DNA from: Mytilus trossulus
Taxonomy: Eukaryota
Length of the DNA stretch: 64,000 nt
Reading direction: 5' to 3'
NCBI RefSeq assembly: GCF_036588685.1
Contig: NC_086385.1
Coordinates: forward strand, 14,407,216-14,471,215
Below the pieces are notes generated by a model that searched no databases, was not told the origin of the DNA, and saw only the letters and a list, made by a program, of their open reading frames with translations. Position 1 is the stretch's first letter. Every line of letters begins with the position of its first letter. Shown piece after piece: positions 3,616-38,200 of this stretch. Position numbers and translations under genes: made by a program.

Positions 3616-4375
3616 AAAGAGATAATCCCTTAAAATTTAGGACACCGTTTTATCAGTTGTTTACGAGGAATTTTAAATTAAAATCTTCTGTAAATATTGT
3701 CCAGCATACACACAACTTTTCATAAGTTTATTTATCCTAAGGTTACTTTTATCATGTTTGACGAGGTCGTGAAGGTCAAATTCATTTCGAAATCAGATGA
3801 TTTAAGACGAAATAGGATTGGAAGACAACATTTGTTTTACGAAAGTTTGACGTAACGAGAAGATTTAAAATCTTAGTGTCATAGATATATTTACAAAAAT
3901 ATAGTAGTGAATTTGCTTAAAGGGTTATTTGTTTTTCTGTTAACAGTAAGTGCTAGTGGACTCCTTAATGTTAGCGTCATGATATATTTACAAAATATAG
4001 TAGTATAATTGATCATGATTACATGGATCTTTGATATCTGGATTAGATCTAGAAGTTTGAAGTAACAAGAAGACTAAAATCTGATTGGTTTATGATTTTG
4101 TGATTACATTCACTGTTTTACAGTAAGAACTATTTCTAGAAGATTTATGTAACAAAAAGACTCTTTAATCCTAGTGTCAGTCACTGTTATAAAAATTAAT
4201 ATAGTACATGTAGTGATTTTGTGGTTAACAGTAATTAAGGACTTAAATTCTATATACCGGTAGTTTGACTTATAAAGAAAACTCAAAATATTAGTGTCAT
4301 AATATATACAAAATTTGTTGATATGGTGATACATTTGATATTTCTGATAAATATACAAAATTTGCTGATATTTAT

Positions 4376-4623
4376 AGATTATCGTTGATCATCTCAACGA
4401 GATTGATTTTCTCGCTTGAGCCGGGACGGTGAAAGCGAGAAAATCAATCTCGTTGAGATGATCAACGATAATCTGTTTATCGCTATTTTACCTATGACGA
4501 CGTTGTCAATTTCGTTAGCAACGCCATGTGCCTGCTTAGTTTCTAGCAATAATATTCCAAGAAGCCTGATATGAAAATTATCACAAAAAAAGATCAAAGG
4601 TAAAATGCACAAAATAGCGATAA
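4376..4623. mobile_element. Palindrome plus inverted-repeat element
   Basis: Perfect 42-bp arms (4376-4417, 4433-4474), then perfect 13-bp IR TTATCGCTATTTT (4477-4489, 4611-4623). Confidence 0.75.
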
Positions 4624-6164
4624 GATTATTTATTTCATATTTTGGTAAACAGGTAGTTCTAGGACTGTTCTAGAATTTTTGTGTATCAAGATAGAGCAAG
4701 ACTCAAAATTTTATAATTATGTATATACATGTAACTATAAACATTGTATTTTCTCATTGGCTTTAAAAGCATACAGAACGTTCACATAATGAATATAATA
4801 TATTTTATTTTTATACATGTATATACATGTATGTATCTGTATTGCAACCGGGCTCAAGAAAAAATCACTCACTGAGAGTGTAAATAATAGATTTAGTTCA
4901 ATGTACCTAAATAATTATTTTCCTATATATCATGTATATATGCAACAGCAATGATTATGAGTTATGACATCATGGAAATTACATGTTTATGATTTTTTTA
5001 CCTTTGATATTAAAACAGATAACATTTTAAGTGTAAAAGCAGTTAATATCTTGAGCAAATCTTAAAACTTGGACAAAAAAAGTCTGATACAAGTTGACTT
5101 ACACATACATATCAGTATCAAATCAGTGTGATGTATTATGCCTTCACGATTTACAAAATAGTAGCGAAATTCATTATATGGTTTATAATATATAATTTTC
5201 TGGTTAAACTATGAAATTTTGATGTAACAACATTTTAAAGCCTTATATGCATTTCTATTTTCAAAAATTTAGAAGTGACTTGTTATTGGTCTATATATAT
5301 ACGTGTAATCAGGTTATTTGATTCAGCGCTAAAACAGGTACAACTGTACTTAAGTAGTTTGACTTGACAATATTTACAAAGTTTTGAAGTGACTTTTGTT
5401 TGGTCTGTACTTAGATTATTTGATTCTGTGCTTAAAACAGGTTCAACAGTGAGTGTTCTTGTAGTTTGCTGTAGTTTTACGTAATACGTAAGAAAACTAA
5501 ATCTTCTGGTAATGTTTACAAAGTTTGGAAGTGAATTCTGATTGGTCTATAATTAAGTCATCTGATAACCTAGTTGTAGAAAATTGATTTACATTATAGG
5601 TACATTGTACATGTATTTATCATTTTCAATTTTGTAGTTGTTTTGTTTTAAGATTTAAATACTTATCGATGAATAATCTTAACAATTCTGCATGAATATG
5701 CAATAAGCATAAAGTTTATAGAAATACATGTAAATGTATGCTGTTTAAGGAAAAAGGGGTGTTCAATAGAAAATGATTGTTTTTATTTGACAGCGATCGA
5801 TGCTTATTAGAGATTTGTGACAGAAAGCCGTTTCAGAACATTATGGGTAATATTTCAAAATGTAAAGCACCAAAACATGGCATTGGCTTCTACCATTCTT
5901 TAATTTGGAAATCAACCAGTGATATGACCAAAATTTTTTTGGGGGTTCAACACAATGAAACTACCAATTAATTCCAGTAGATTCTGAAATGGCAAAATGT
6001 TCTGATTTGGGTTGTTTTAAAGAGCTTTTAAAAGTACATGTATGTAAATGTACATGCATGTTTGATGGAAGTTGATGTTTTTGTTTTGTAATATAAAGAT
6101 ATATGCATTGAAGATTATAACCAGTGCTACATGTATTTCCAATTCTGACTTTGTTTATTTTTAG

Positions 6165-6284
6165 AAGTGTGACTTTTGGACGACAATTGCTGCTCCACAG
6201 ATTAAGACAAAGGATAATATCTTAAACAAGCAAACTATCGAAAAGATAAATAAAGAAGCCAACTAAAGCAGGAAAAGTTCAAAG
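6165..6284 (+). other. Candidate non-coding 5'-UTR exon
   Basis: Acceptor ctttgtttatttttAG, donor AAG|GTATAT, 120 nt non-repetitive. Link to the SLC4 gene is inferred only. Confidence 0.35.
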
Positions 6285-7386
6285 GTATATTATCAGTTCA
6301 TTAGAATATGAATGTTTTTGTCTGAAAATGCTTCATGAGAGTGCTTCAAAAGCAAATTTGATATCAGATATCTCGGGGCGGGCACAGTTTTTTTGCAGTT
6401 CAGTGTCAAGTTCTAGGTATATTATAACTAACCAATGGCAGTGAAGCGTATTGTAGTATACCTGTCAACAGAATGTCCATCTGTTTTGATGTACATGTAC
6501 ACGTATCACTAAATCTCAAAATCTTTAAATATCCTTCAACATTAACATAACATATATGTCCCTATGTTTTTATGTAAAAAAATTACATGTCCAAATCTCA
6601 AAATCTTAGAAAAATTATCTACCTTACTTGCATGGCCCAAAATCTTTAAAAAAAAAATTAAAAAAATTAAGATCTAAGATTAAAGTTATAGAATTTTTGG
6701 GCTAGTCAATGGTCATGTGTAGTTTCACATTTATTTAACATAAATCATGTCATTGACTATATCAGGATCCTTTTGATTACAATTTGTTATGACTTTATGA
6801 GTTTTGAAGGTTGCAGTAACATCACATTTGATATGGGTTTTGAATCTTAACGGATACAAAAAATGTTTTTGACATTATTTTTCAATCATTTTTTTTATTT
6901 CAAAATTTATAAGACATTGAAGCCTTGAGGTAAGCCTCCTTTAATTTGATTTTTATTTTCACAAAACAGTTTCGGAGATGAAATCTTAACAGAGGCAACT
7001 TAATGTGGACTTTTTAACCTGGTTTATATATTTAAATATCGTCCAAATTGAATATTAATTCAAACTTGAGATAAAAAGGATCAAAATTCCGATTTATCTC
7101 TAAGTGATTTTGAGGTCATGTGACAGTAAAACATTCGTAAATTATGTTTGGCGGTCATTTACTGATATGAATGGCTTTGTAGTCATTTCTTCAATATTAC
7201 TATTAGGAGTGTTTACCTTTATAAAATTATCTGTAAATCAGTGTTTCCTAAGGCTTTTAGAAAAAAATGGACATATTACCTTAACTGGACCAAAATCTTC
7301 CTACAGGGCATTTACACATATGATTTAAATATTTTTGCTGCTCATTTTGACCAATTAAACATATCATAACTGGACCTAACCAATAT

Positions 7387-7546
7387 ACCTTATTGCTTTT
7401 TGGAAATCTTTGCCGCAAGAACTATTGACGTCATACAACAATCACTTTTCAATTGTGGTGTTAGATATTTTGTTACAAATGACGTCAAAATTTTACTGAA
7501 ACATTTGTGATGTCCAGTAATTATGACGAACAAAAAGCAATAAGGT
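7387..7546 (-). mobile_element. 160-bp MITE, same family as 58372
   Basis: TIR accttattgcttttt; reverse complement aligns with 58372-58490. Confidence 0.7.
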
Positions 7547-7602
7547 TTATATTACTGGTCAATTGACCTTGGGAATGACTGGTACATATAGAATAATAGG
7601 TA

Positions 7603-7693
7603 GTTTCGTTTTTGATACTGACTATATCATGGTGAAAATCTAGATGAGCTCGTAAGATATTCCACATGATATAGTCAGTATCAAAAACGAAAC
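7603..7693. repeat. Palindrome with perfect 29-bp arms
   Basis: gtttcgtttttgatactgactatatcatg / catgatatagtcagtatcaaaaacgaaac. Confidence 0.85.
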
Positions 7694-8065
7694 ATAACGT
7701 GTGTAATTATTCTGTTTATTGGAAATTATGACTCCCAAAATGTATTGCCTAATATTTTCAGTGATACAGCCAGTACGTTGATACTCTAATATATTAGGCA
7801 GTAAGATCAAAGGGAAAGTATATGAATTACCGATAAATACATGTAGCTCAAAAATTATTTTAAACCTAAGGTCTTAACATGTTAGGGCAAAGTTGACAAT
7901 ATAAGGATTTAGCTTTTCAAAGTTTTGTCATGTAGCTCCTCAGTTACTCCATATATAATCTATATGTTTACATCCTGGGCTTTTAATTTCTTTTAGAGCC
8001 TTCCTTCATCTCTAAGTAAATCAATCACCAAATTTATAAAGTGATATTTTCATAGTGCAATTACA

Positions 8066-8538
8066 TATTATTCTATAAAATAAAAGTTGTACATGTTATT
8101 GCATCCTGTAGAGAGAGGACTAGACTGTGTAAAACTATGTTGGTTGATAATATAATATATAATCGTCCTTCCCTACGCCTACATCACCCTGCTCTGTTGC
8201 TCAATAATTCTCTTATCAAGACTTCAAAACGAGACCAGACATTATCAACGACATTACAATGTGAGAGGAGAAGTTATCAACAACATCACAATGCGAGAGG
8301 AGACGTTATCAAGCTTGCTTTTGTCAAGCGTAAAACTGTCTTAGGGAGAGGAAAAAATACCATTTTAATAGAACAATAAACAGATAATCAGGTTTTCTAC
8401 GTATAGATATCGTTAAATATCAGCTGCCTGACACAATGTGAAACTTTTTAGCTCGTTCACTACGCTCACTCCCCAAAAAAGGTTCACATTGTGGCTCGCG
8501 GCTGATATTTTACGATATCAATATGTAGTAAACCTGAT
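8066..8538. mobile_element. Palindrome plus inverted-repeat element, opposite orientation, decayed
   Basis: IR tattattctataaaat / attttaatagaacaata (8066-8081, 8362-8378), then imperfect palindrome 8387-8538. Confidence 0.65.
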
Positions 8539-8785
8539 ACATGTAATTTATACTTATTATACTCCAGCTCCTGTGGAGAGGAGAATAAACATTAGTTAAC
8601 ATAAATAATATTAAGGGCCCTTCATCCCTTACAACAAGTCTTTGAGGTGGCATGTTTCTATACGTAGCCTACAAGGGTGGATTCAGCCCTTTCTAAAAGG
8701 GTTCAGTTTCATCCAAGGGAAAAAGGGGGAGGCATACTGCCACTGGTCTAAATTTCTGTCCCTTTATAAGCAGTTATTGTCCAAA

Positions 8786-9003
8786 TTACCTTCCGTTTAT
8801 TTTTGTTCACCCATATTACAGGACCTTTCTTCTGTTTTTATTTGCATTGTAAATTATTTGGTCCTCAATGTTCTTCAACTTCATACTTTATTTTGGCCTT
8901 TTAAACTTTTTTGGATTTGAGCGTCACTGATGAGTCTTTTGTAGACCAAACATGCGTCTGGCGTATATACAAAATTTAGTCCTGGTGTCTATGATGAGTT
9001 AAT
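8786..9003 (+). mobile_element. Diverged retrozyme-family copy with mutated hammerhead (8921-8964)
   Basis: gcgtca CTGATGA gtct-tttgt-agac CAAA catgc GTC tggcgt; GAAA core changed to CAAA; flanks similar to the 38945 element. Confidence 0.75.
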
Positions 9004-12000
9004 TTAGTTCTCATCCTGAACATGCAGGAAATATTGGCCACTGGACATTAACATAGTTACACCTGACTTTTTGATAGCTCTTAATGAATTCAAAAAAGAA
9101 TTCCAAAACTGCAAGCTACATGGTTTAATTCTGCTGTTATGATCAGCTGTTGAAATTCACTTGCACCATTATCCTGAAGTTATTACAGCAATTAGTGTAT
9201 AATTTAAAATAACTTATAAATGTTTATATAAGATCAAAAGATGGTTTTCAATGGATGAGATTAAAAGTTTTTATTTTGTTTGGTCTACATCTTACATGAA
9301 TGAAGATTTCCTCATTTAGATACATCTGTAGGTTCATTTTGGCTTGAATGTTGATGCAAGAATTCTTTTCTTCGAAAAAACAGAATAGAATCTTTGAATT
9401 TGTAGGTGTACTTCAAGAAACAGTAAAATCTGTTATTTTGGCACACATTTTACAAAATTCTTATAATTGATTGATTTATTCTTGTTTACTTTAAATAAAT
9501 ACTTTCAAAGTCAAATAAATTACAACCCATTTTAGTGGTATGACTTTTTTATGAAAATGATTCACGTTTTTTAGTAGAAATTAAGTAAAATATTATTCAT
9601 GTATGCTTGTTTAGATTATGCTCGTTCTGCTTCAAGTTGCAGCCATTTTTGGGACTTTTTACAGACCCCAAGACAGGGTCCATAATGAAGACTATGTTTT
9701 TAATGTCAATTATGCATGTTTCTAATTAATTTTTTTTTATTTACATCACTTCACTTTTATATCATTGTCTATTTTTAAAACTACTTTATGGGGAAGTCAA
9801 ATAACATGAATATCCTGCTTAGTGATTTAACAGAAATGCTTAATTTTATATTCCATATGCAACTACATATACATGCATTGATTAGTTTTTGATTTAATGC
9901 ATTTACCAGGCCATCAATGAAAAAGATAGATTTTTACAAAAATAACTTTGTTTTGTTAACTGTATCCTGGCAAAGTATTGGTTTAATACAATTTATCATT
10001 TCACCTGATTAATTTGACTTGAGTTCATACCAATAAATTTCGCTTGGAGGATGTTGTTAAAAGTACGCATGACCTTTGCTTTAAATTCATCATTGCCATA
10101 TTAAACCAAAAGCAATATTGAATATTTTTGTTTGTTTATTTGCGTAAAAATCCAACTCAGAAAGGGAATTATTCTTATGTATTGCTAAGGTTTATAGTGA
10201 CATCGCCATAAAGGTATAAGGACTTCAATTTATCAAAAATCCTGAATTTTTAATTTGTTTTCCTCTAAAAGGTTAAAATAAATGTTATATCAATGTAAAT
10301 GCAGTGGTATTTTCAAGTAAAACACACAAATTTTGATTGGAAGTTCAAAACTACTTTGTGCATATGTTGTGTTAAGAAGTACAAATAAAATTTGAATTTT
10401 GACAAGGATTTTAACAAATAAAAAATGCATCTAAGTGCACTGAAGTATTTGTTTTGAATATCCTGCAAGTCTGACCGGTGAGTAATCATTTGGAGATTTG
10501 AAACAAAATATATTTATTGCTCATAGCATGAATATTTAAGCTGACATGCTATAAAATAATTCATAAAATATTGTTTTATTTACATATTGCCATCAAAGAA
10601 TTATAGGCATACAAGGTTGCATGTATTTTTCAGTAAGGAATTTTTGTGGTACATTATTTATTATTTTTAAATTCCAGTAATACTTGATGTTTATTTTAGT
10701 AAATAAGTTAGACAGAATTTTAAACATTAAAAACAAACTGACATTAAAACAGAAACCAGGAAGTAGTCAAGTAAGTAAGTAAAATTTATTTCACTGGCAG
10801 GATCCAGGGGAGGGTTCCGGGGATTGGAACCGCCCCCCCCCCTTTTTCTTTGGATGATAAATGCATTTGAATGGGGAGCTGGGTAAGGAATCCCCCCTTT
10901 ATCCTGGGTTGAGAACCTCCCCTTTTGAAGATGGTTCGATATGCAGCTGGATTTAGTGTTGTCCAGAGTATAAATATGTTAACAGTCTCCAAGCTCAGGC
11001 TAAATGTTTATAAAATGCCTATAATGGTTACTGTGGATCATTCCAAATTTTACGAATTGAGCTAGCGTCTCAGCAAGGAACAATTGTTAAATTTAAGAAA
11101 ATATTTGATTTCATGGTTTTTTCAAAGTTTGCATACAGCACAAGACTTTTAATGCATTGGTGCTTGAGGCACATGTTTTTGAAGGAAAAACCTAATTCTA
11201 AGTTTGAACTGTTATTAAAACCAATTATGATGTACACATGATAATTAATACTCTCCAAAAATAAGAGCTGTCAGCATTTAATGGATTTAAGATTAAAAAT
11301 TTTGAAAATTGCAATTGTCATCAAAATCAGTTTTTTTCAATGATAAAATCAAAATTAATTCAACTCTGAAATTGAGATCAATTTAAATACATACATGGTA
11401 ATATTGTCCAAAAATAAGAGCTGTCATTGTTGTTTTTTTAATGTCCTTTTAAAGCTATATAGGACGAATTGGATACTGTTATAGACCAGGGGTCATGGCG
11501 GTGACAATTATGTCATTCATACTTGCTGTTTGAAGTATAATTATTTTAGATCACATGGCACAAAATTTTGCTGGCATGATGACTTTTTTATACCCGCATG
11601 CTCCCATGACCCTAATATTAAATTCCGTGTTGAACAACCTTGATAAGACCTTGAAAACTACTTTTTGGGATGCTTCGATCTTATTTAAAAAGTAATAAAC
11701 TAAAAAGGGTGGATGTTATACAATGTATCAAATTTAATGTTGTAAAAAAACCTTGAAAAGACCTTCAATTCTTAATGTACTTGAATATAAGGACATGTTA
11801 GATAATAAGAAAAAGTCATATAGGTTAGATAAGAATATTTAAAAGGAAATAACCAAAGAACTTTTCTTTCTGGTTCTCATCTCATCTTGACTACAAAAAG
11901 GAGGTACTATATCTAGATGAAGGGACACAACTCTCAATGATCATTGGTATGTTTTATGATATTCATTTTAATTATTATAACACAAGCTTTAAAGTAACAC

Positions 12001-13911
12001 AGGCAAATTTAATTCTGTTTCACATGATTCTTTCAAGTTTATTAAGAAATCATACTTTTACAAACACATTAATGATTAAATGAGTTGTCTATCTTAACTC
12101 TGAGGCTTATGCCCTTGTAAGGACCTCACATCTTCCAATTCAGAAATTATTGCAATCTTTTTATGATTGTGAAAATTGCAACAATGTTATAATTGTAATG
12201 ATTTAAACTTCCATTTAAACAGGATTTTTCTCAATATTGCAAAATATTTATCAAATAATAATCACATTTATGTCCAGAATGACAAAATCACAAAAATAAA
12301 TACATGCAATAATTGATGATTTTACAATATTTAGATACAAATTGATATACAGTAGTTTTAAGCGTCAGTTAGCTGGGGAACTTTAAAATGCTGTAAACTT
12401 AAAAAAAATATGGCCTATTTTTTTTTGTAATTGTATAAAAAATGCTTTAATAGATAATTAGATTTTCAATAGATGTAGCAAAGTATTGTAAATTCAGAAA
12501 TTTTGGCATGCATTTAACAATAGCAAATGTGGAACACTTTAACAAAATGTGATATTTATTATTGCAATTTCATGAAATTTTTATTTCCCCATTTCCCCCA
12601 AACTTGATATTGCTTAAATTGTGACTAAAAATGGGATGAAGTCAGTTGTCTCATTGGCACTGACATACCACATCTTCTTATATCTTATATATTGTTGCTT
12701 TATATATATCATGTTTACGAGGTATAGCACCCCAGACTTTTATAATAACTATTTAAAGGAACAATTTGTATTAAATTATCAAAAATCATCGACTTGAAAA
12801 GTTTTCATACTGGCCATATGTGAATGGAATTTTAGTCAACAGAGGGATTGGTCTAGATCTGATTCCTAAAGCTGAATGTAAGGTCTATAAATAGAACGTG
12901 GGGAAATTATTTGGCAACCAAAATAGAAATATTTTGTCACATGGTATAATAACATTCCCTATACTCATACATGTAGAGTGAGTCAGATTTATTAATGTAA
13001 ACTTAAGACTTGTGATACAATAACATACACACTTTATACTGTTAGTAATGTACTTTGTATAATAGCCTATATATTTTTTCGTATTTTTGTGGAATTTACC
13101 TTGAAATATATCAGGTTTGTTTATATTTGTCACTATCAATTTTGTCATCTGCATGTATATATATTAATGGTGTAATTTAGTCTCCCAGTTATTTCAAAAA
13201 GAGCAGTCTGTGTCAAAAAAAAATTCAGCTTCTAGTCCTGGTGAGACACTCAATAATAGCAAAACTTGTCCCCATTTACGTTTAGGTGCTTATTTGTCAA
13301 TATGCCGAATCCAAATAAAGTTTTACTTACTTATATGACTATATAAAAAAATTGAAAATTTTCACTTGTCTAAATCAATTTTTGCTAGTCTGGGGCATTG
13401 GATTATATTAGTGGCTATAACAGTGCAAAAATAAATTTGCCAAAAAATCATTTTTTCTTGTAAAATTATCGCCCTATTACATGAAAACATTTTTTTGGGG
13501 CAAATTTATATTCTCAATCTAATAAAGCATTTTTTAATTTGCTGCTATTTAAAATTTAGCTTTACAATGATTGTATAATGGAAAGAGATGTGTATGGTGG
13601 TTTTTTTATTCATTACTAAAATCCATTAGGAAAATCCAGTGTATTTTTCGTCCTCATTTTCATATAACTTCTAAGGAAAGCGAAACAAAACCAATTATCC
13701 TCTATTTGAAATTCATTACACGTTGTAAGCACCTAAACGTAAATGAATTGCATAAATTTTAGCATATCAAGGGAATAAAACATAGAAAGTATGACAAGAG
13801 TTATCCAACTGCCCACCCCAAACAGACCACCAGCTATCAGGAACACTGACTCAGTTCAGTGACTACCTTTTCTGTCATCCTGTTTCTGGTTATATTTAAC
13901 ATTGTTATATT

Positions 13912-14110
13912 CCAGGCCTGTTATAGCTTACTATGCAGAATGGGTTTTGCTTATTGTTGAAGGCCATATGGTGACCTTTAGTTGTTAATTTCTATGTTAT
14001 TTGGTCTCTGGTTGAGAGTTGTCTGTTGTTTGTTATCCTACCCCATCTTCTTTTTTGTAAGAAATGTTAATATAAATAAGAAGATGTGGTATAAGTGCCA
14101 ATGAGACCAT
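13912..14110. mobile_element. Two family B fragments tail-to-tail
   Basis: + copy 13912-14058 and - copy 14070-14110. Confidence 0.6.
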
Positions 14111-14435
14111 TTACATCTGGGAAGTCATTTTCATGGGAGAGAACTCTTGTACAAATCAAGAAACTCAAAATGTTTTTCGCTGGTGAATTATAGCCTTATA
14201 GGATTCTTCACCTGACTACTTAGTGTTAAATTTTAGGGTTATTCGTCCTTCATTGCAACTAAACGAAAATTATCTGAATTATTCCATTGTCACTTGATAA
14301 CATGTTGCCCAATAGAACTGTTCGTTATATATGTATAATAAACTTAATTGTAATGTCATCAAATCAGATATTACATATTCACTACATATATTTTAATTAT
14401 AATAATGACTTGACATATCTTGGTTTTATTTTCAG

Positions 14436-14550
14436 ATTTCTTTGAATTTTTCACTAACCGTCGTGACGGCTCAGTTAGTCATCACGGAGTTACTTTGCAG
14501 TCACATCTGTTTTACCAATAGGATTTACCAACAAGATCTCACATAGCCTG
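14436..14550 (+). other. Candidate non-coding 5'-UTR exon
   Basis: Acceptor ggttttattttcAG, strong donor CTG|GTAAGG, 115 nt, no ATG. Confidence 0.4.
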
Positions 14551-14611
14551 GTAAGGCATACACATTATTATTAAAAAAATTTCATAATAAACATAGAGTC
14601 ATATTCATTTT

Positions 14612-14799
14612 GAGAATCCAAAGTCAGATGTTACTAGGAAGTCGGAGTGCCTTGTAAAAACTACTGACCTGTCATAGGAAAGCTGACAATCCTAGTCAGT
14701 TAAGATTGAAGTCAAGTGCACCTGCATGAGTGGGGTTTGAACTCACAACCTCAGTGATGACTGGCTGTACTCCTTAGACCACACGGCCACTGAGGCCTC
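14612..14799 (-). mobile_element. tRNA-derived SINE
   Basis: - strand begins gaggcctcagTGGCCGTGTGGtctaag (A box) ... GAGTTCAAACC (B box); related decayed pieces near 48270-48420 and 39630-39690. Confidence 0.7.
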
Positions 14800-15438
14800 T
14801 CAATTATTACTGAATTTACAGTATATACATGATATATAATCATGTATATATATATGTGAATATAGATTTTTTTTACAATGTACCATGGTACATGAAAATA
14901 AATCTATATAAATTCTGTGCTTTAAAAGCATTTTTTTTTTTTTCACAAATCAGGACTAGTTTGATTGAATTCTTTTTGGATTTATTATTACAGTCAATAT
15001 GCTGTGGTTGGTTATTTTTGATACACTTCTATCAATCAGCCAATCAAATTGTCTGTTTATATAAAAAACTTTCCTGATTTTAGTTAGGCAAATGTGGGTA
15101 TTTCGGACTGTTGCAACAGTTTGTTTTCTTAAATTTTTTGTTATAGTATTTTGACCAATCAAATGAATTAATGCTTATGTTAACTCATTATAGCTTAGAT
15201 AGGTTCAGCCGACAGTCTTCTCCTGTTCACTCAAATTTTACAACATATTTCAAACATTAAATCCTAAAACATTTTTCAACATAATTTTATTACATACACA
15301 TACATGTATTATATAATGAAAGAGCAGAACTGAGGCATGTAAAATTAGGCTTGGGAGACTTTTTGGAACTTTCATCTACTTTGTGCCCATTCCAACAAGG
15401 TAACAATGTTAAAGACAAAATCTGCTCCTTTTGGCTTA

Positions 15439-15629
15439 CTGTAGATTCAGAAATTATTGCAATGTTTTTATTATTGCAAAAAAATGCGACGTTGTAATAA
15501 TAACAATAATTTTAACTCGCATTTTGAAAATTTTTATTGGAATTCAACAGGATTTTTCACAGTATCACTAAAATTAAAATCGCATTTTAATCTTAAAGGA
15601 CAAAATGGCAATAATAAATGAATTTACAG
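15439..15629. mobile_element. TA-flanked MITE (CTGTA(G/A)ATTCA TIR)
   Basis: TA|CTGTAGATTCAG...TGAATTTACAG|TA; decayed relatives near 12137-12327 and 36727-36915. Confidence 0.7.
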
Positions 15630-16219
15630 TATTTAATTGTATTGTATTTCAACTCTGGTTAGTGTATAAAGGTTATGTTCATACTTGGTTTCAAGTTCAA
15701 CACATGAATCAAACCTTTAAATTTCAAGAAAGGTTTCAGGTGAAATATAAATCTCACCTTGACCTTTAATTGTAAAGTTAAATGCCTATTGTTAAATGGC
15801 ATATTTTTTCTCTCAGTCCAGTTATAACTGGATAAACAGCTGATTCAGCATTTTTACTGAGAAATGATTATTTTTTTCACTTATAAAGTTAATTTGAGTG
15901 TCAGACTAAATAAAGTAAAAACTTATCAAGAGACTATTGCCAAGGTGACATGGATCATGTTGATAACACAAAAATAAAATACCAACTTTGTGTTCAGCTG
16001 CGATTTTAATTTTTGCGATACTGAGAAAAATCCTGTTGAATTCATATAAAAAATTCACTGAGTGACCATTCATTAAAGTTAAGTTCACTCTAATTAATCA
16101 TAAATTTAACTTCATATTAAAGTATTTTGTAAAAGAATTGAATGATGAGAAAGTGGAGATCTATCTTAAAACAAAATTTAGGCAGTTAACTTATTACCAC
16201 AAGCTTCTTTTGATTTGTC

Positions 16220-16517
16220 TTTTTATGCCCCACCTATGATAGTAGAGGGGCATTATGTTTTTCTGGTCTGTGCGCCCGTTTGTCGGTCCATTCGTCCGTC
16301 CGTCTGTCCCGCCTCAGGTTAAAGTTTTTGGTCAAGGTAGTTTTTGATGAAGTTGAAGTCCAATCGACTTCAAACTTAATACACATGTTGCCTATGATAT
16401 GATCTTTCTAATTTTAATGCCAAATTAGAGATTTTACCCCAATTTCATGGTCCACTGAATATAGAAAATGATTATGCGAGTGGGGCATTCGTGTACTGAA
16501 GACACATTCTTGTTTTT
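16220..16517 (+). mobile_element. Short HINE-like element
   Basis: TTTTATGCCCCAC..AGGGGCAT, (GTCC)n, GTGGGGCAT, 3' hairpin GTGT..ACAC, T-tail. Confidence 0.8.
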
Positions 16518-17063
16518 CTCTCACTCATACACACAAATAATATGGCTTCACCTAACGACTAACGTAAGCTCCATTGAAGAACTATTGTGTTTTGAGACCT
16601 CTTAATGTCAATTTTCTCAGTATTTATACTCATTAAAAACAAGAAGTGCCCTAACATACAAAGACTTTTACCAGTAATTATTGACAGATATTTAAACAGC
16701 AGTAATCTTTTCCGACTTTTGATTTCTATTTTTGGAGTTTTATTTGAAATCCTCTTAATAAAGAAAAATGACTGTGCCTGAGATTTGACAGATAGATGGT
16801 TGTTCTATTTGTGACATCGGATTACTGATAGATTGGGGTTTAACAAGAGTGGAATTAAATATTGATCTCTATTGCGGTGTACCATACATATTGTGACAAA
16901 TCTATCTGTTTTTCTAATTCATGAATATAATAACTAGATAAAAAAAGATTGTCAACAGTTGAAAAAATCGATCCTAACAAATCAAATTTATTTTTAAACA
17001 AAAAGAAAACCTGAAGAAATATATTGTTAACACTTATTGTTGGGAGGGCAAAAAAAATAACTA

Positions 17064-17600
17064 TATAAAATAGAGAATGGAAATGGGGAATGTGTCAAAG
17101 CGACAAAAATCCGACCATAGAGTATACATCTGTGAGTGAGCCATAGGCCACCAACGATGGGTCTTCAATGTCGCGAGAAACTCCTGCACCTAAAGCATCC
17201 TAATACATGTATGATAAAACTGTTTGGGAAATGTGATTTGATTCACCCCTCCCCTTTTTTTCTCTCCAACTTTTTAACTTAAAATTTCAGAAAAGCATGT
17301 TTGTTTAATTGAAAATTTAAATGTGGTTAAAAACTCCAGAAAGAGCTTAAAAAAATTTCAGATGAGGAAAATAAAATTGAGAGTGGAAATGGGGAATGTG
17401 TCAAAGAGACAACAACTTGATCAAAGAGCAGATAACAGCGGAAGACCACCATTGGGTCTTCAACACAGCCAGAAATCAACATATCTGGAAATGGGCCTGA
17501 GATCTGGTTATAAATAAAAATGTGTGCTAGTTCAGTGAAAATGGACGCCATAATAATAACTCCACAACATATAAATGAACTAAAATTAATAAAAAATATA
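17064..17600 (-). mobile_element. Two family A copies (about 17064-17200 and 17369-17600)
   Basis: Both start ataaaa(t)t/ag agaatggaaatggggaatgtgtcaaag on +, with different truncation points. Confidence 0.75.
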
Positions 17601-17876
17601 GAAGACTAAAAAAGGCCAGGTATAGGATAAAAAAAAAAACATGTTCGTTCATTATAATTTTGTGAACTCAAATTGAGGAAAACGTTTTTTGATGCATTTT
17701 GTTATTTGATTTTGCCATGTGATTATGGACTTTCCGAAATTGAATTTCCTCTGAGTTCAGTTTTTTTGTGATTTTACTTTTTAGCATATTAAAATGATGA
17801 TAAATTATAACGTTTTAGAGTAGTTGTGATTTATATCATTTATTGGATATGTATATATAGATAATAAATATTGAAA

Positions 17877-18023
17877 AACTGGTCATTATCGTGATAATAT
17901 GGACTGCCCACAGGACAGTTGTATTGACTAAGACAGTGATAATGTGACTGAGCCGTAGGCGAGGTCTTTATCACCGTCACAGGAAATACCACTGTCCTAC
18001 GGGCTGTTCATGTATGACCAGTT
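17877..18023. repeat. Decayed long palindrome with GCC-GTA-GGC loop
   Basis: aactggtcat/atgaccagtt, aggacagt/actgtcct and gtgataa/ttatcac pairings. Confidence 0.6.
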
Positions 18024-18472
18024 CATATACAATTATCATGTTTATTTCATTGAGAAACCATGTTTTACAATTCAAATTCCTACATTAACTTCAAAAAATT
18101 TATAAAGCACACTTTAGTTAATGTATGATTTCTATTAGAAATGTCATGAAGACCAGTCATTGTAATACATGTAACTATATACGTTACTGCCATTCATTTG
18201 AATGCGATTTAAGTATATGAATACTAGATAAAGTTTCCTATAATTTTATAATTTACGAAAACATATGGTAAAGAATTCCACAATTTAAATATAAAATTGA
18301 AAACAGGAAATGTTTTTACTACAGGGACTATCATGATCTCTCTAAACAGAGGAACCATGGTCGATCATTAACATGTGCAACAGTTCATTGACGACTGGTT
18401 TTATGGTCCATTTTGTTCTGTTAATGACGGATGGAATTTATTACTGAAGAATACAGTGTCATGTGCCCCCCC

Positions 18473-20410
18473 TTTTTAGCTCACCTGTCCCGAAGGGACA
18501 AGTGAGCTTATGCCATCACTTGGCGTCCGTCGTCGTCCGTCGTCTGTCGTCGTAAACTATTTCAAGAATCTTCTCCTCTGAAACTACTGAGCCAAATACT
18601 TTCAAACTTTAACTGAATGTTCCTTAGGGTATCTAATTTATAAATTGTATCCGAAGTTATGATCTATCAACAAACATGGTCGCCATTGCTAAAAATAGAA
18701 CATAGGGGTCAAATGCAGTTTTTGGCTTATAACTCAAAAACCAAAGCATTTAGAGCAAATCTGACATGGGGTTATATTGTTTATCAGGTCAAGATCTATC
18801 TGCTCTGAAATTTTCAGATGAAGCAGACAACCCGTTGTTGGGTTGCTGCCCCTGAATTGGTAATTTTAAGGAAATTTTGCTGTTTTTGGTTATTATCTTG
18901 AATATTATTATAGATAGAGATAAACTGTAAACAGGAATAATGTTCAGCAAAGTAAGATTTACAAATAAGTCAACATGACGGAAATGGTCAGTTGACCCCT
19001 TTAGAAGTTATTGCCCTTTATAGTCAATTTTTAACCATTTTTCGTAAATCTTAGTAATCTTTTACAAAAATCTTCTCCTCTGAAACTACTGGGCCAAATA
19101 CTTCCAAACTTTAACTGAATGTTCCTTAGGATATCTAGTTTGTAAATTGTATCCGAAGTTATGATCTATCAACAAACATGGTCGCCATTGCTAAAAATAG
19201 AACATTGGGGTCAAATGCAGTTTTTGGCTTATAACTCAAAAACCAAAGCATTTTGAGCAAATCTGACATGGGATAATTATTAAGAGATAACTGTATTGTA
19301 TTTGAAGCTTTAAGGACGTCCATCGGTAGTTTTACTGTCGCAAATTTAGTTTACCTGGCGACGCGGAGCGGAGACAGGTAAACGGGTATTTGCGACAGTA
19401 AAACTACCGATGGACGTCCGCAAAGCTTCAAATACAATACAGTTATCTCTATTCTAATGCAAAACAAGTTCATTATAAAATTTTAATCATTATTTCAGTG
19501 TAAAATCTTCATTAAAGAAAATTCCGCGAAAAATTTTTATCTTCTTTGGTCCCTACACTAGGTGACGTCATAGTAATGCTTCCGGCGTCAAACATAAACA
19601 CCGGGCGTTTTATGGCTTCTGTGCCGCTTCAAAATGTAATAAAATTTGAAAAAAAAAAGAAGATTTTTAGGCGCAACAAGTGAGTTTTTTTGTTTATTAT
19701 TGTAGAAATGGCATGTCAATACATTCCGAAATTCAAAATGTCGGCTTCCCTAGTTACAGACGAGGAGATAGAGAATTTTAAGCTTCCTGTCGTCCAATCA
19801 GAACAATTGTTACAAAATAATTGCATTAGAATATTGTTTATCAGGTCAAGATCTATCTGCCCTGAAATTTTCAGATGAATCAGACAACCTGTTGTTGGGT
19901 TGCTGCCCCTGAATTGATAATTTTAAGGAAATTTTGCTGTTTTTGTTTATTTTCTTGAATATAATTATAGATAGAAATAAACTGTAAACAGCAATAATGT
20001 TCAGCAAAGTAAGATCTTCAATTAAGTCAATTTGACCAAAATTGTCAATTGACCCCTTAAGGAGTTATTGCCCTTTAAAGACTTTTTTCACAATTTGTTC
20101 ATCATGTTGACTTACTTTAAAAAATCTTCTCCTTTGAAACTGCTGTATCAATTTCAGCCAAACTTAGGCTAAATGAGTTTCAGAGTATCTAGTATAAATT
20201 TTATATTTTATTTCCTTGTATGTCAAGAAACATAGCTCCTATGGCTAAAATAGAACATAGGAGAAAATGATTATTTTTTTTGGCTTTTGAAGAAAATAGG
20301 ACGATCCAAAAAACATTTAAATAAATTGAAAAGCCAAAATAATCAGTGATGAGAGATTTAACCAAAAGAATTAAGGTGAGCGATTCAGGCTCTTGAGAGC
20401 CTCTTGTTTT
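18473..20410 (+). mobile_element. Helentron-associated non-autonomous element (HINE/DINE-1-like) with internal repeats and a nested insertion
   Basis: 5' TTTTTAGCTCACCTG..AAGTGAGC, (CGTC)n, about 500-bp repeats, 3' AGGTGAGCG, hairpin AGGCTCTTGAGAGCCT, T-tail. Confidence 0.85.
19279..19833. mobile_element. Palindrome plus inverted-repeat element nested in HINE
   Basis: About 75-bp arms over 19283-19450, 13-bp IR TATTCTAATGCAA (19450-19462, 19821-19833); host repeat resumes exactly after it. Confidence 0.85.
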
Positions 20411-20954
20411 TTTTATCCAATACTAATTCTTAACTGATATATGAAATAACATTTTTTTTTTTTTTTTTTAATATTTAGCTGGGAAAATTATAGTCAATTA
20501 ATCTATCTCGGTATGTTGAATCGTTGGTATTTAAGGGTCAGGGCTGAAGGGCATGTTATATATTCAGTAATTGATTTGTTTGAAATATTAGGTTCAAATG
20601 CTTTCAGTGCATTAAAGCATCAATTACATTTGAAAGAATTGTATAAGAAGAGAAAAGGACATTCAAACTTGTAAGTTCAAAAAATTAAAACAGACAATAG
20701 AAGAAAAAAGAAAAAAACCCAACATAAGACAAAAAGCATTATACAAAATCACTTCTTCGAGTATTAAAGAATAAGGTTACAATCTTGTTATGTCCTGCAT
20801 AGAGGTATTATTATTTTTTTTAGGTCTGTGGGTCTGTTTGTCTATCGGTTTGTCTGTCTGTTAGCTTCAGGTTAATGATTTTGGTCAATATACATGTAGG
20901 TAGTGTTTGATGAAGTTTAGGTCCAAATAAACACATGTTTCCTTTGATGAGATA

Positions 20955-35275: not shown

Positions 35276-38200
35276 GTTTGTATTATTCCAAGAAGTAGAG
35301 TTATTCCCCTTGTATACTTTAATTATAATCTTTATTTGTTATAAAAGTAACATTATACTTGTAACATATAAACAAAAGTAACAACAACAATAATATAACT
35401 GAGTTGAACACACACATATCTAAATATATTATATACAAGTAAAATGAAGGAGAGTGGTTTCCCCTTGTTTACCACTTTTATAAAGGAGAGTTATTTCCCC
35501 TTGTTCACTATTTTTATGAATGAGATTTATTTCCCCTTATGTATTTCTTGCCAGGATGAACACAAATTGCAGTTAAAAAAATCTTTTCATTTGTCCATAT
35601 TAATCATTTCATTTGTATCATTAATCAAGGCAATAGAATACGTCAAAGATATAAACTGAATTGAGAATTTTTATATTGACCCGACATAAAACATAGTAAA
35701 ACATATTCCTCATAAACCACAATCAGCATAAAACAGTTTGTGTTTGCATAAGATTAATAAAACATATTTCAAATAAATCACCACCATTACGTAACCTTAT
35801 ATTACGACAATGGTAGCAAAATTGAATACACTCAAGTAAAACTATTATAAAAAAGAAGATGTGGTGTGACCGTATGATTGCCAATGAGACAACTCTTCAC
35901 AAGAGACCAAATGACACAGAAATTTACAACTATAGGTCACCATACAGCCTTCAACAATGTGCAAAATGACAAATTTAAAACATTTAAAATGAGGAAACTA
36001 TTGGCCCAATTTATGTACAAAACAATGAAGGAAAAAGAAATATGTAACACATCAACAAACTACAACCCCTGAATTACAGGCTCCTGACTTTGGACAGGCA
36101 CATACAAGCAAAATGTGGTGGGTTTAAACATATAAGCAGGTTCCCAATCCTTCCCATAAGCATGAATTGTACACTTTTGTTATAACTTTATACTGCATTT
36201 ACATGTATATTGAAGAAACACAAAATATTGAAATGCTTTTTTCTCTTTACAGAATTATATTAAAGAAACAGAACCATTTCTCTCAACATCATCTAGTCAT
36301 GGGGGAAACCTCGAGTCTAATGGCAGACAAGATATTGCTCTCTTGCCAGGCCCTATTCCTTGCGTTTCGACGGCACCTGTACCATTTTCCCAGTTAGAGG
36401 AAGAGAGTAGGCCCCGTCTTTCAAGCTTCAGGAGTTCTTTTAACGAAGATGTCGAAAAACTGTTTTCTATGCCGGAGAAGTTTGACATTGCAGCACTATC
36501 ATCTGGGTCAGAGCTTGTTACTTCTAACCGTAGTGACCCTAACTTCCAGATTGGTGCTCAAGTTATGGAGAAGCAATTCCTAGATGATATTGAAGTTGAG
36601 AACTTTTCAAGTAAGATGATATGGGTTTATTAATACTCATCATAGACAGCTTAAATTGTTTTATATTATCAATAGGGGAAACCATTAACTTGTATACTGT
36701 TCGCTGACTCAATTTCAGTTACTGTACTATAAATTTAGAAATTATAGCGATGTTTTTATTATTGCGAAAAATGCCACAGGCTGATTATGAATCGCAATAA
36801 TTTTAACTCGCATTTTGAAATTTTTTATATGAGTTACGCTGGACTTTTCTGAAGATCTCAAAAATTAAAATGTCATTTAGTCTAAAATGACAAAATTGCA
36901 ATAATAAATGTAGCAGGTAGGAAAAAAATGAAAATTTGAATCTTCACAAATAGGTAAATCTTTGAGATTCTCTTTTATATATAACAACAACAAAATTAGA
37001 AAAATTATAGCCATGAAATCAGGGAATAAATGCTGAACATTAAAAACTTAGAGAGGAACTGAATCCAACAGGAAAAGTTGACCTTTAATTGATTCAGGTC
37101 TCATATAGCTTTTCATAAACATTCTTTGCTTTCAATTATTTGGCTTTAAGAGTTTTTGCCAAAGTTAAATCATGAAATGTGCTTCCAAAACATGAAATTT
37201 ATAAAATATAATTTTGATTTTTTACAGACCATCGAACCTCTAGATTTCCTCATCAGCACCACCCACTTAAAGCCATGAGGAGTAAATCGTTTAAACATGC
37301 CCCTCCATCTCAGGAAAAAGTAAAGAAAAAGAAGAAGAAGAAGAAAAGAAAAATGAAGACTCCTAAAAGTTTTCCCTCTCGATCGGCGATATTGTCACCT
37401 ACCATTCATGAAGTCGAGAATGAAGAAGATCATGTAAGATTTGTTTTGACAGCTTATTAGAAAATATCTCTTGTTGCTCTTTATGGTTGGGTTGATGTCT
37501 TATTGACATTTAGTCCAGCCTTTGCCTCAGTGACTATATTTTTTTAATTTTTTTTTTAAATGAGTCACTGAGGCCAAGGCTGGACTAATTGACATTTACC
37601 TACGTCTCCCTTTATTCACACACAGCATAATCTTCAGCAACTAAAATGAATGACGCAGGGTTTAAGCTAGGATTTTGAGGGCTTTAGTCACTTTTGCGCG
37701 CCATGGAAATCAACCTTTTTTTTGTGTAACAGCAAGGTACCAAGGATGTTTGTTACTAGCTTCATCTTTGACTCTGTCAGATTTTAAGGACTTGTAGCTA
37801 TATAGGCATGACTGGCAGTCAGTATTGTATGATTTGACTGTATTGCCCTTATTATGAAAGATTCTGACATGGATGTGGAAACTTAGTTCACAATATTCTC
37901 TTCAGTTTGTTCCAGAGGACATTCCTGAACAACACAAGTTGGATTCGTTTGTTTTAAACAAGGAATCACAGTAGAAATTAACTTGCAATGATTTTATCAC
38001 TGCATAATCATTATCCTTATAAATCGTCTAAATCGAAATCTGGAAATCATTTCTATTAAGTTGGATGTATAAAATCCTTTTTGGAACTAGTATAACGACT
38101 GAAAGGAGGTTGTAAACAAATCAAGAATAGATAACGTTTTCTACTTTCGGTTTTAAAATGAAACGAAAACGGGAAGTGACACGTGAATAGTAAATTCAAA

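Follow-up and report, generated by a model that had tools for sequence, protein, structure and literature searches.

In the available text of Kojima and Jurka 2011 (PMC3212892), no terminal repeats were found for animal Cryptons. The Eulor5/6 repeats have been tied to salmon Cryptons (Crypton-N1_SSa) in a report whose accessible part gives no structure (PMC5753468), and the accessible part of the Glomhopper paper (PMC13465315) has no mention of hairpin, single-strand or circular. The present analysis concerned a 64,000-nucleotide stretch of Mytilus trossulus DNA (contig NC_086385.1, positions 14,407,216 to 14,471,215; the window), taken from an AT-rich genome of 1.3 Gb with 14 large contigs, and the four palindromic repeats in it, each representing one family and labelled F4, F8, F17 and F19. 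The original prediction had regarded them as non-autonomous elements of shared structure, possibly served by Crypton-type tyrosine recombinases or by HUH enzymes. The results indicated that the four repeats are gene-less elements whose end design is common to CryptonA-type transposons of the same genome, and that they are probably moved by the recombinases of those transposons as a folded single strand. In the literature searched, no paper was found to describe this layout; the Repbase and Dfam entries and one review, which lay outside the search, may hold it.

All four long palindromes were present. The arms at 4376-4417/4433-4474, 8387-8449/8476-8538 and 19283-19345/19388-19450 matched at 100%, 86% and 97%, respectively, the palindrome at 17.9 kb was also found, and the tip sequences read as predicted, that of F8 on the minus strand. 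All four proved to be dispersed multi-copy families. The first-look search gave 1929, 2630, 1123 and 413 candidates for F19, F4, F8 and F17, respectively, which are not copy numbers; 40 candidates were scored per family, and the element ends were fixed from about 30 loci per family, these being the copies closest to the window's own. When each family was oriented so that its long hairpin came first (5'), the same layout was obtained in all four: target arm, cut, 7-nt spacer, arm A, tip, A', 5-nt spacer, B, body, B', cut, 6-nt target spacer and target arm. The B' calls were made by eye, an automatic B' finder having given many chance matches.

The non-autonomous element F4 occupies 4372-4623 on the plus strand, with the 7-nt spacer at 4372-4378, arm A at 4379-4417, the tip at 4418-4432, A' up to 4471, the 5-nt spacer at 4472-4476, arm B starting at 4477 and the B' end at 4623. 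F8, also non-autonomous, lies on the minus strand at 8160-8553, its start being corrected from 8066 to 8160; the left spacer ends at 8553, and the tip (8467-8457), the 5-nt spacer (8384-8380), B (below 8380) and the B' end (8160) follow. The non-autonomous F17 spans 17851-20449 on the plus strand, is diverged, which makes its left end approximate, and is split by a nested insertion; its tip is at 17950-17962, its 5-nt spacer at 18037-18041, B at 18042-18050 and B' at 20441-20449, the family length being mostly about 690-880 bp. The short inverted-repeat pair of F17, earlier reported as not found, therefore exists; it was missed because the insertion at about 18475-20408 had pushed the right end out to 20441-20449. 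F19 is a young non-autonomous element at 19280-19831 on the plus strand (7-nt spacer 19280-19286, tip 19360-19372, 5-nt spacer 19447-19451, B 19452-19461, B' 19822-19831), and its top 40 copies are 94-98% alike. The arms had been described as unrelated in sequence, but F4 and F8 have the internal junction and about 12 initial nt in common. The window copy of F4 (4379-4471) was the sole one with perfectly complementary arms among 25 measured, and its 3' arm seems to have been copied from the 5' arm with removal of the family's G.A and G.T mismatches, by template switch or as an assembly polishing artefact.

The 7-nt element spacers of F4, F8, F17 and F19 are TTATAGA, GTATAGA, TTATATA and TTAAGAG, and the 5-nt internal spacers are TCTGT, TCTGT, TATGT and CTCTA. 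The left 7-mer was exact at 27/30, 27/29, 28/29 and 28/30 loci, respectively, and the six target bases on the right were unconstrained except in F19, where the first is T at 26 of 28 loci, a base able to pair with the F19 internal spacer. The element spacer is kept on the left and the target spacer on the right at the insertion sites of all four families. The target preference was palindromic, (G/T)ATAW ^ N6 WTA(T), with W-T-A at +7 to +9 on the right; in F8 the flanks carried T at -3 in 28/29 and at +8 in 26/29 loci, and the preference was weaker in F17 and F19. As a consequence of the 7/5/6-nt spacer geometry, the internal junction is near-complementary to the joined ends. Neither this geometry nor the target preference had formed part of the original prediction.

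Insertion in the four families is precise and without target duplication. No terminal inverted repeats (TIRs) pairing both ends were detected, flank duplications at the loci of the four families showed no excess over shuffled pairs, and the direct terminal repeats of 4-6 bp by which fungal and oomycete Cryptons are recognised were absent, with at most a shared T in F19. Among 103 filled sites tested, 11 had informative empty paralogs, and seven of these joined at the predicted cut with no gain or loss. At locus L184, which holds a recombinase-coding element, the contigs of two of four runs skipped exactly 3649-7529 with no letters between, thereby confirming both predicted cuts. The window F8 site was skipped in three of four runs, with a junction that falls within an AT tract and is displaced by 7 nt from the expected join; the window F4 site was bridged by one X4 contig. 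Head-to-tail joints with the 7-nt spacer were seen at L181 and for F4 in X1. The locus L181-L182 (G000:C8:8980600-8991600) holds three head-to-tail copies, >99.5% alike, of a 3661-bp coding element with the predicted 7-nt joint.

Longer versions with open reading frames (ORFs), which had been proposed as a check, were found among the many tyrosine-recombinase frames of the genome. A 3.88-kb coding element at L184, L186 and L187 (98.8-99.7% alike; L185 is truncated and L188 a relative) has the tip and both ends in common with F8, the ends being 78-83% alike. F4 resembles a 4.26-kb, two-frame element (L189-L191) at both ends (79-81%), and the ends of F19 match L311 at 77% and 83% around an intact-looking frame at this single locus, which is probably its partner. 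Two candidates were rejected: L308 for F19, 84% alike at the hairpin, with no defined right end and truncated copies, and L316/L318 for F17, with the same 7-mer and no BLAST similarity. When one locus per family was scanned, the partner ORFs matched DUF3504, some also QRICH1 and Phage_integrase, with one weak, sub-threshold match to DUF7418; these elements are very probably of CryptonA type, as judged from the Pfam DUF3504 and QRICH1 matches only. The L184 protein carries R-K-HxxR-H-Y motifs, the roles of these residues being our assumption. L184-191 contained no non-recombinase ORF of at least 150 aa.

The 7/5 layout with B and B' was read by eye in seven coding families, each with at least two independent copies (L184-188, L189-191, L181/183, L194/195, L312/313, L309/314 and L316/318), so that the 7-against-5 spacer is predicted from sequence in four short and seven coding families. 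Twenty further 8-kb DUF3504 loci were taken by frame length from about 120, prior to any hairpin scan; 15 had a GA-closed hairpin against 11 of 100 random 10-kb loci, and these 15 comprised 10 GNA, three GNNA and two other tips, with one of the 15 being an inserted F4. Related recombinases were also sought in metagenomes, where a first scan with a single protein gave no match. Among 80 metagenome loci, many of them short, 16 had a GA-closed hairpin and 13 of 17 tips were GNA; the AG/AG control equalled GA/GA (16/80 each), 11 of its readings being the same tips shifted. Both ends were visible around the frame at L325 and L384. Mollusc metagenomes were among the datasets with a related element, and none of the listed holders was an RNA dataset.

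The hairpin tip was analysed separately, the forms GCGNAGC and GCGNNAGC being described as stable mini-hairpins in the available parts of PMC13037366 and PMC3201870. G-N-A was kept within the four families with N variable (28/28, at least 28/29, 22/22 and 30/30) and always on the hairpin-5' strand; the F4 tip stem switches between T-A and C-G in two subfamilies (one event). As a signal defining the whole class, GNA did not hold up. In an evenly spaced 1-Mb genome sample, none of 84 long hairpins found without using the motif had a strict GNA tip (the blind finder was incomplete, missing one F4 copy in L253), and other families carry TT, TTT, AAC, TGT or GNNA loops. The same sample showed enrichment of the GA...GA closure, which was the top non-pairing combination in 9/74 blind hairpins versus 22/3000 random 36-mers; this closure is the class-wide signal, and the loops vary. 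A direct scan of the sample gave 11 hairpins with GA closure, of which two had GNNA loops and none a GNA triloop. Inspection by eye showed the spacer layout described above on their GA strand, and nine of the 11 had a B' a further 270-730 nt away. Raw counts of the motifs in the random Mb make a poor control (GA/GA 11, AA/AA 8, AA/GA 6, AG/AG 5). Tandem G.A mismatches within the arms, on the hairpin-5' strand, occurred in F4, F8 and three coding families.

These features suggest the following mechanism. The strand with the hairpin at its 5' end would fold, A pairing with A' and B with B', and this fold would bring the internal junction (A'-5 nt-B) opposite the joined ends (B'-7 nt-A), giving a recombinase site with inverted arms around a bulged 7-against-5 spacer. 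The GA-closed mini-hairpin and the tandem G.A pairs may nucleate the fold and choose the strand, for which the lagging strand or a cruciform are candidate sources; recognition would pass through a single-stranded or cruciform intermediate. The recombinase would cut the folded strand and the like target strand directly 3' of the left arm, only one strand pair would be exchanged, and the insertion would be finished by replication. We infer, with more confidence than doubt, that the folded strand integrates by one such exchange. A single exchange on a folded strand would leave the element spacer on the left and the target spacer on the right, cause no duplication, need no homology and produce the same tandem joint; the junction pattern appears consistent with one exchange resolved by replication. 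Were an excised circle propagated as both strands, an old target spacer would be expected on the left in some copies; the 118 anchored left ends, which come from the closest copies, showed no conspicuous case.

Several observations weigh against this reading. Neither a circle nor a single strand nor enzyme activity was observed, the steps being inferred from sequence, and the elements encode nothing that would supply single-stranded DNA. Variants may be under-sampled, the loci examined (30 per family) being the copies closest to the window's. At four of the 11 informative sites, filled and empty versions are unequal by 2-4 nt; for three of these the comparison was with one or two diverged empty copies, and the fourth is the window F19 site, which has 3 nt more than 15 of 23 empty paralogs. 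The F19 family makes no target-site duplication (TSD), but the window copy, earlier described as a clean insertion with no clear TSD, has these extra bases. The F17 tandem joint at L112 has 6 nt, not 7, and tandem joints can also be explained by insertion into the element's own end. For F17 no sequence-matched coding partner was found, the link being by layout alone, and that of F19 is known from a single locus, in which a hairpin is nested. The arms of F17 and F19 contain no tandem G.A, and the mismatch bias of F8 is weak (136 purine-purine against 118 pyrimidine-pyrimidine), the copies in both comparisons not being independent. ViennaRNA folding energies were similar for both strands and did not separate them.

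An unlikely but serious alternative accepts the same elements and enzymes, with the fold serving only one-strand copy-out and circularisation or accessory binding and a double-stranded circle integrating, much as in the Goodwin model or in bacterial elements that circularise with strand bias. Joining the ends does create an ordinary inverted-arm site, its 7-bp spacer falls in the 6-8 bp range stated for such recombinases (PMC3212892, in part), strand-biased circularisation by tyrosine recombinases is described in the available text of PMC9345347, and the fixed left spacer is also accounted for. By itself, however, this account leaves unexplained an internal copy that is two bases shorter than the end spacer in all eleven families, and two exchanges would have difficulty in resolving a 7-bp element spacer that faces a 6-bp target spacer of free sequence.

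It is very improbable that the repeats are non-autonomous DIRS-type derivatives whose internal junction acts as an internal complementary region (ICR) splinting cDNA into a circle. In DIRS elements the ICR splints the ends. The internal complement of the joined ends does follow this logic (the ICR is named in the accessible part of PMC13465315), but the coding partners are 3.2-4.3 kb with recombinase ORFs only and lack reverse transcriptase/RNase H and DDE enzymes, and 23 of 30 PF00589 loci have no such tip within 1.5 kb, four of the remaining seven being the F4 partner family. HUH-driven (Helentron/Replitron-like) elements or ordinary miniature inverted-repeat transposable elements with TIRs and TSDs can scarcely be credited, since, although Helentrons also lack a TSD and carry hairpins (PMC7492417, in part), no TIRs pair the ends, TSDs are not in excess over shuffled flanks, the target is palindromic with a 6-nt spacer, and the partners with shared ends encode DUF3504 recombinases only, with no HUH Rep protein among the matches of the scanned ORFs.

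Other features were noted beside these elements. An unrelated host repeat is nested in a T-run of F17 at about 18475-20408 (ends approximate) and carries F19; its GTCY microsatellite and T-rich site make it appear Helentron (HINE)-like when compared with the features in the available text of PMC7492417. An F8 copy (L079) and the window F19 copy lie few bases apart in different copies of one host repeat, as expected because the target motif is shared. At L195:7227-7790 an F19-like element sits in the tip of another palindromic repeat inside a coding Crypton, and that repeat is empty in L194. The window has two more long palindromes without a GA-closed tip, at 7603-7693 (within a high-depth repeat) and 37504-37594. 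A PF00589-only element with a 408-aa frame (L128, L129, L131) carries two inverted copies of a short GA-closed GAA hairpin, one on each side of the recombinase frame, possibly a DIRS-type end. L196, a DUF3504/QRICH1 frame of 603 aa without catalytic motifs and without a tip, may be a domesticated or decayed gene.

The movement of animal Cryptons, whose ends have so far been reported as featureless, is open to assay. The layout supplies exact cut positions, the substrate strand and the target motif, and L184 supplies a young, intact, polymorphic coding element; together these reduce the question of movement to an oligonucleotide assay. The layout also provides a structural rule by which many hairpin repeats still without a name, numbering about 11 per Mb in this genome, could be classed; should the reading be true, it would point to a scarless structure-guided integrase of eukaryotic origin. 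The CryptonA kind itself is known; the end design of its non-autonomous elements is new relative to the literature searched.

As far as the available parts of the cited papers go, the elements resemble CryptonA and its derivatives in having a DUF3504/QRICH1-type recombinase as the sole gene, no TIR and no TSD (PMC3212892, PMC5753468, PMC13465315), and short non-autonomous copies that far outnumber coding ones. Published animal Cryptons, for which a circular double-stranded intermediate is assumed, differ from them: here both ends are mirrored internally, the spacers are 7/5/6, the target is palindromic and the hairpin tip is specific to one strand. DIRS elements, with inverted terminal repeats (ITRs) and ICR, likewise have internal sequence complementary to the joined ends and a tyrosine recombinase (PMC13465315), but the partners here lack reverse transcriptase and long ITRs. 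For a folded-strand substrate, inverted site copies, a one-strand fold and an unpaired spacer are all predicted from the sequence. Two inverted site copies, a one-strand double hairpin and an unpaired overlap are likewise features of CTXphi attP(+) used by XerC, which integrates by single exchange and forms tandem arrays (PMC3442271), a single exchange being suggested here by the sequence. CTXphi differs in that XerCD of the host acts at a single fixed dif target and a rolling-circle protein of the phage is used, whereas the class described here encodes its own recombinase, is loose in its choice of target and lacks a replication gene. Integron attC sites recombined by IntI also vary in sequence and conserve structure, with an unpaired central spacer and a variable tip, and their cassettes are gene-less passengers moved in trans (PMC2727003), as appears to be the case here. 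Unlike integrons, these eukaryotic elements have no attI platform or cassette array, and their site is distributed over the two ends and an internal copy. On balance we incline slightly to the view that animal CryptonA elements are a eukaryotic counterpart of integron cassettes and CTXphi, in which a structure code on a folded strand (7/5 bulged spacer, sheared G.A and mini-hairpin cap) would direct a single exchange without homology or duplication, and that this route lies behind a large, mostly unclassified share of invertebrate hairpin repeats.

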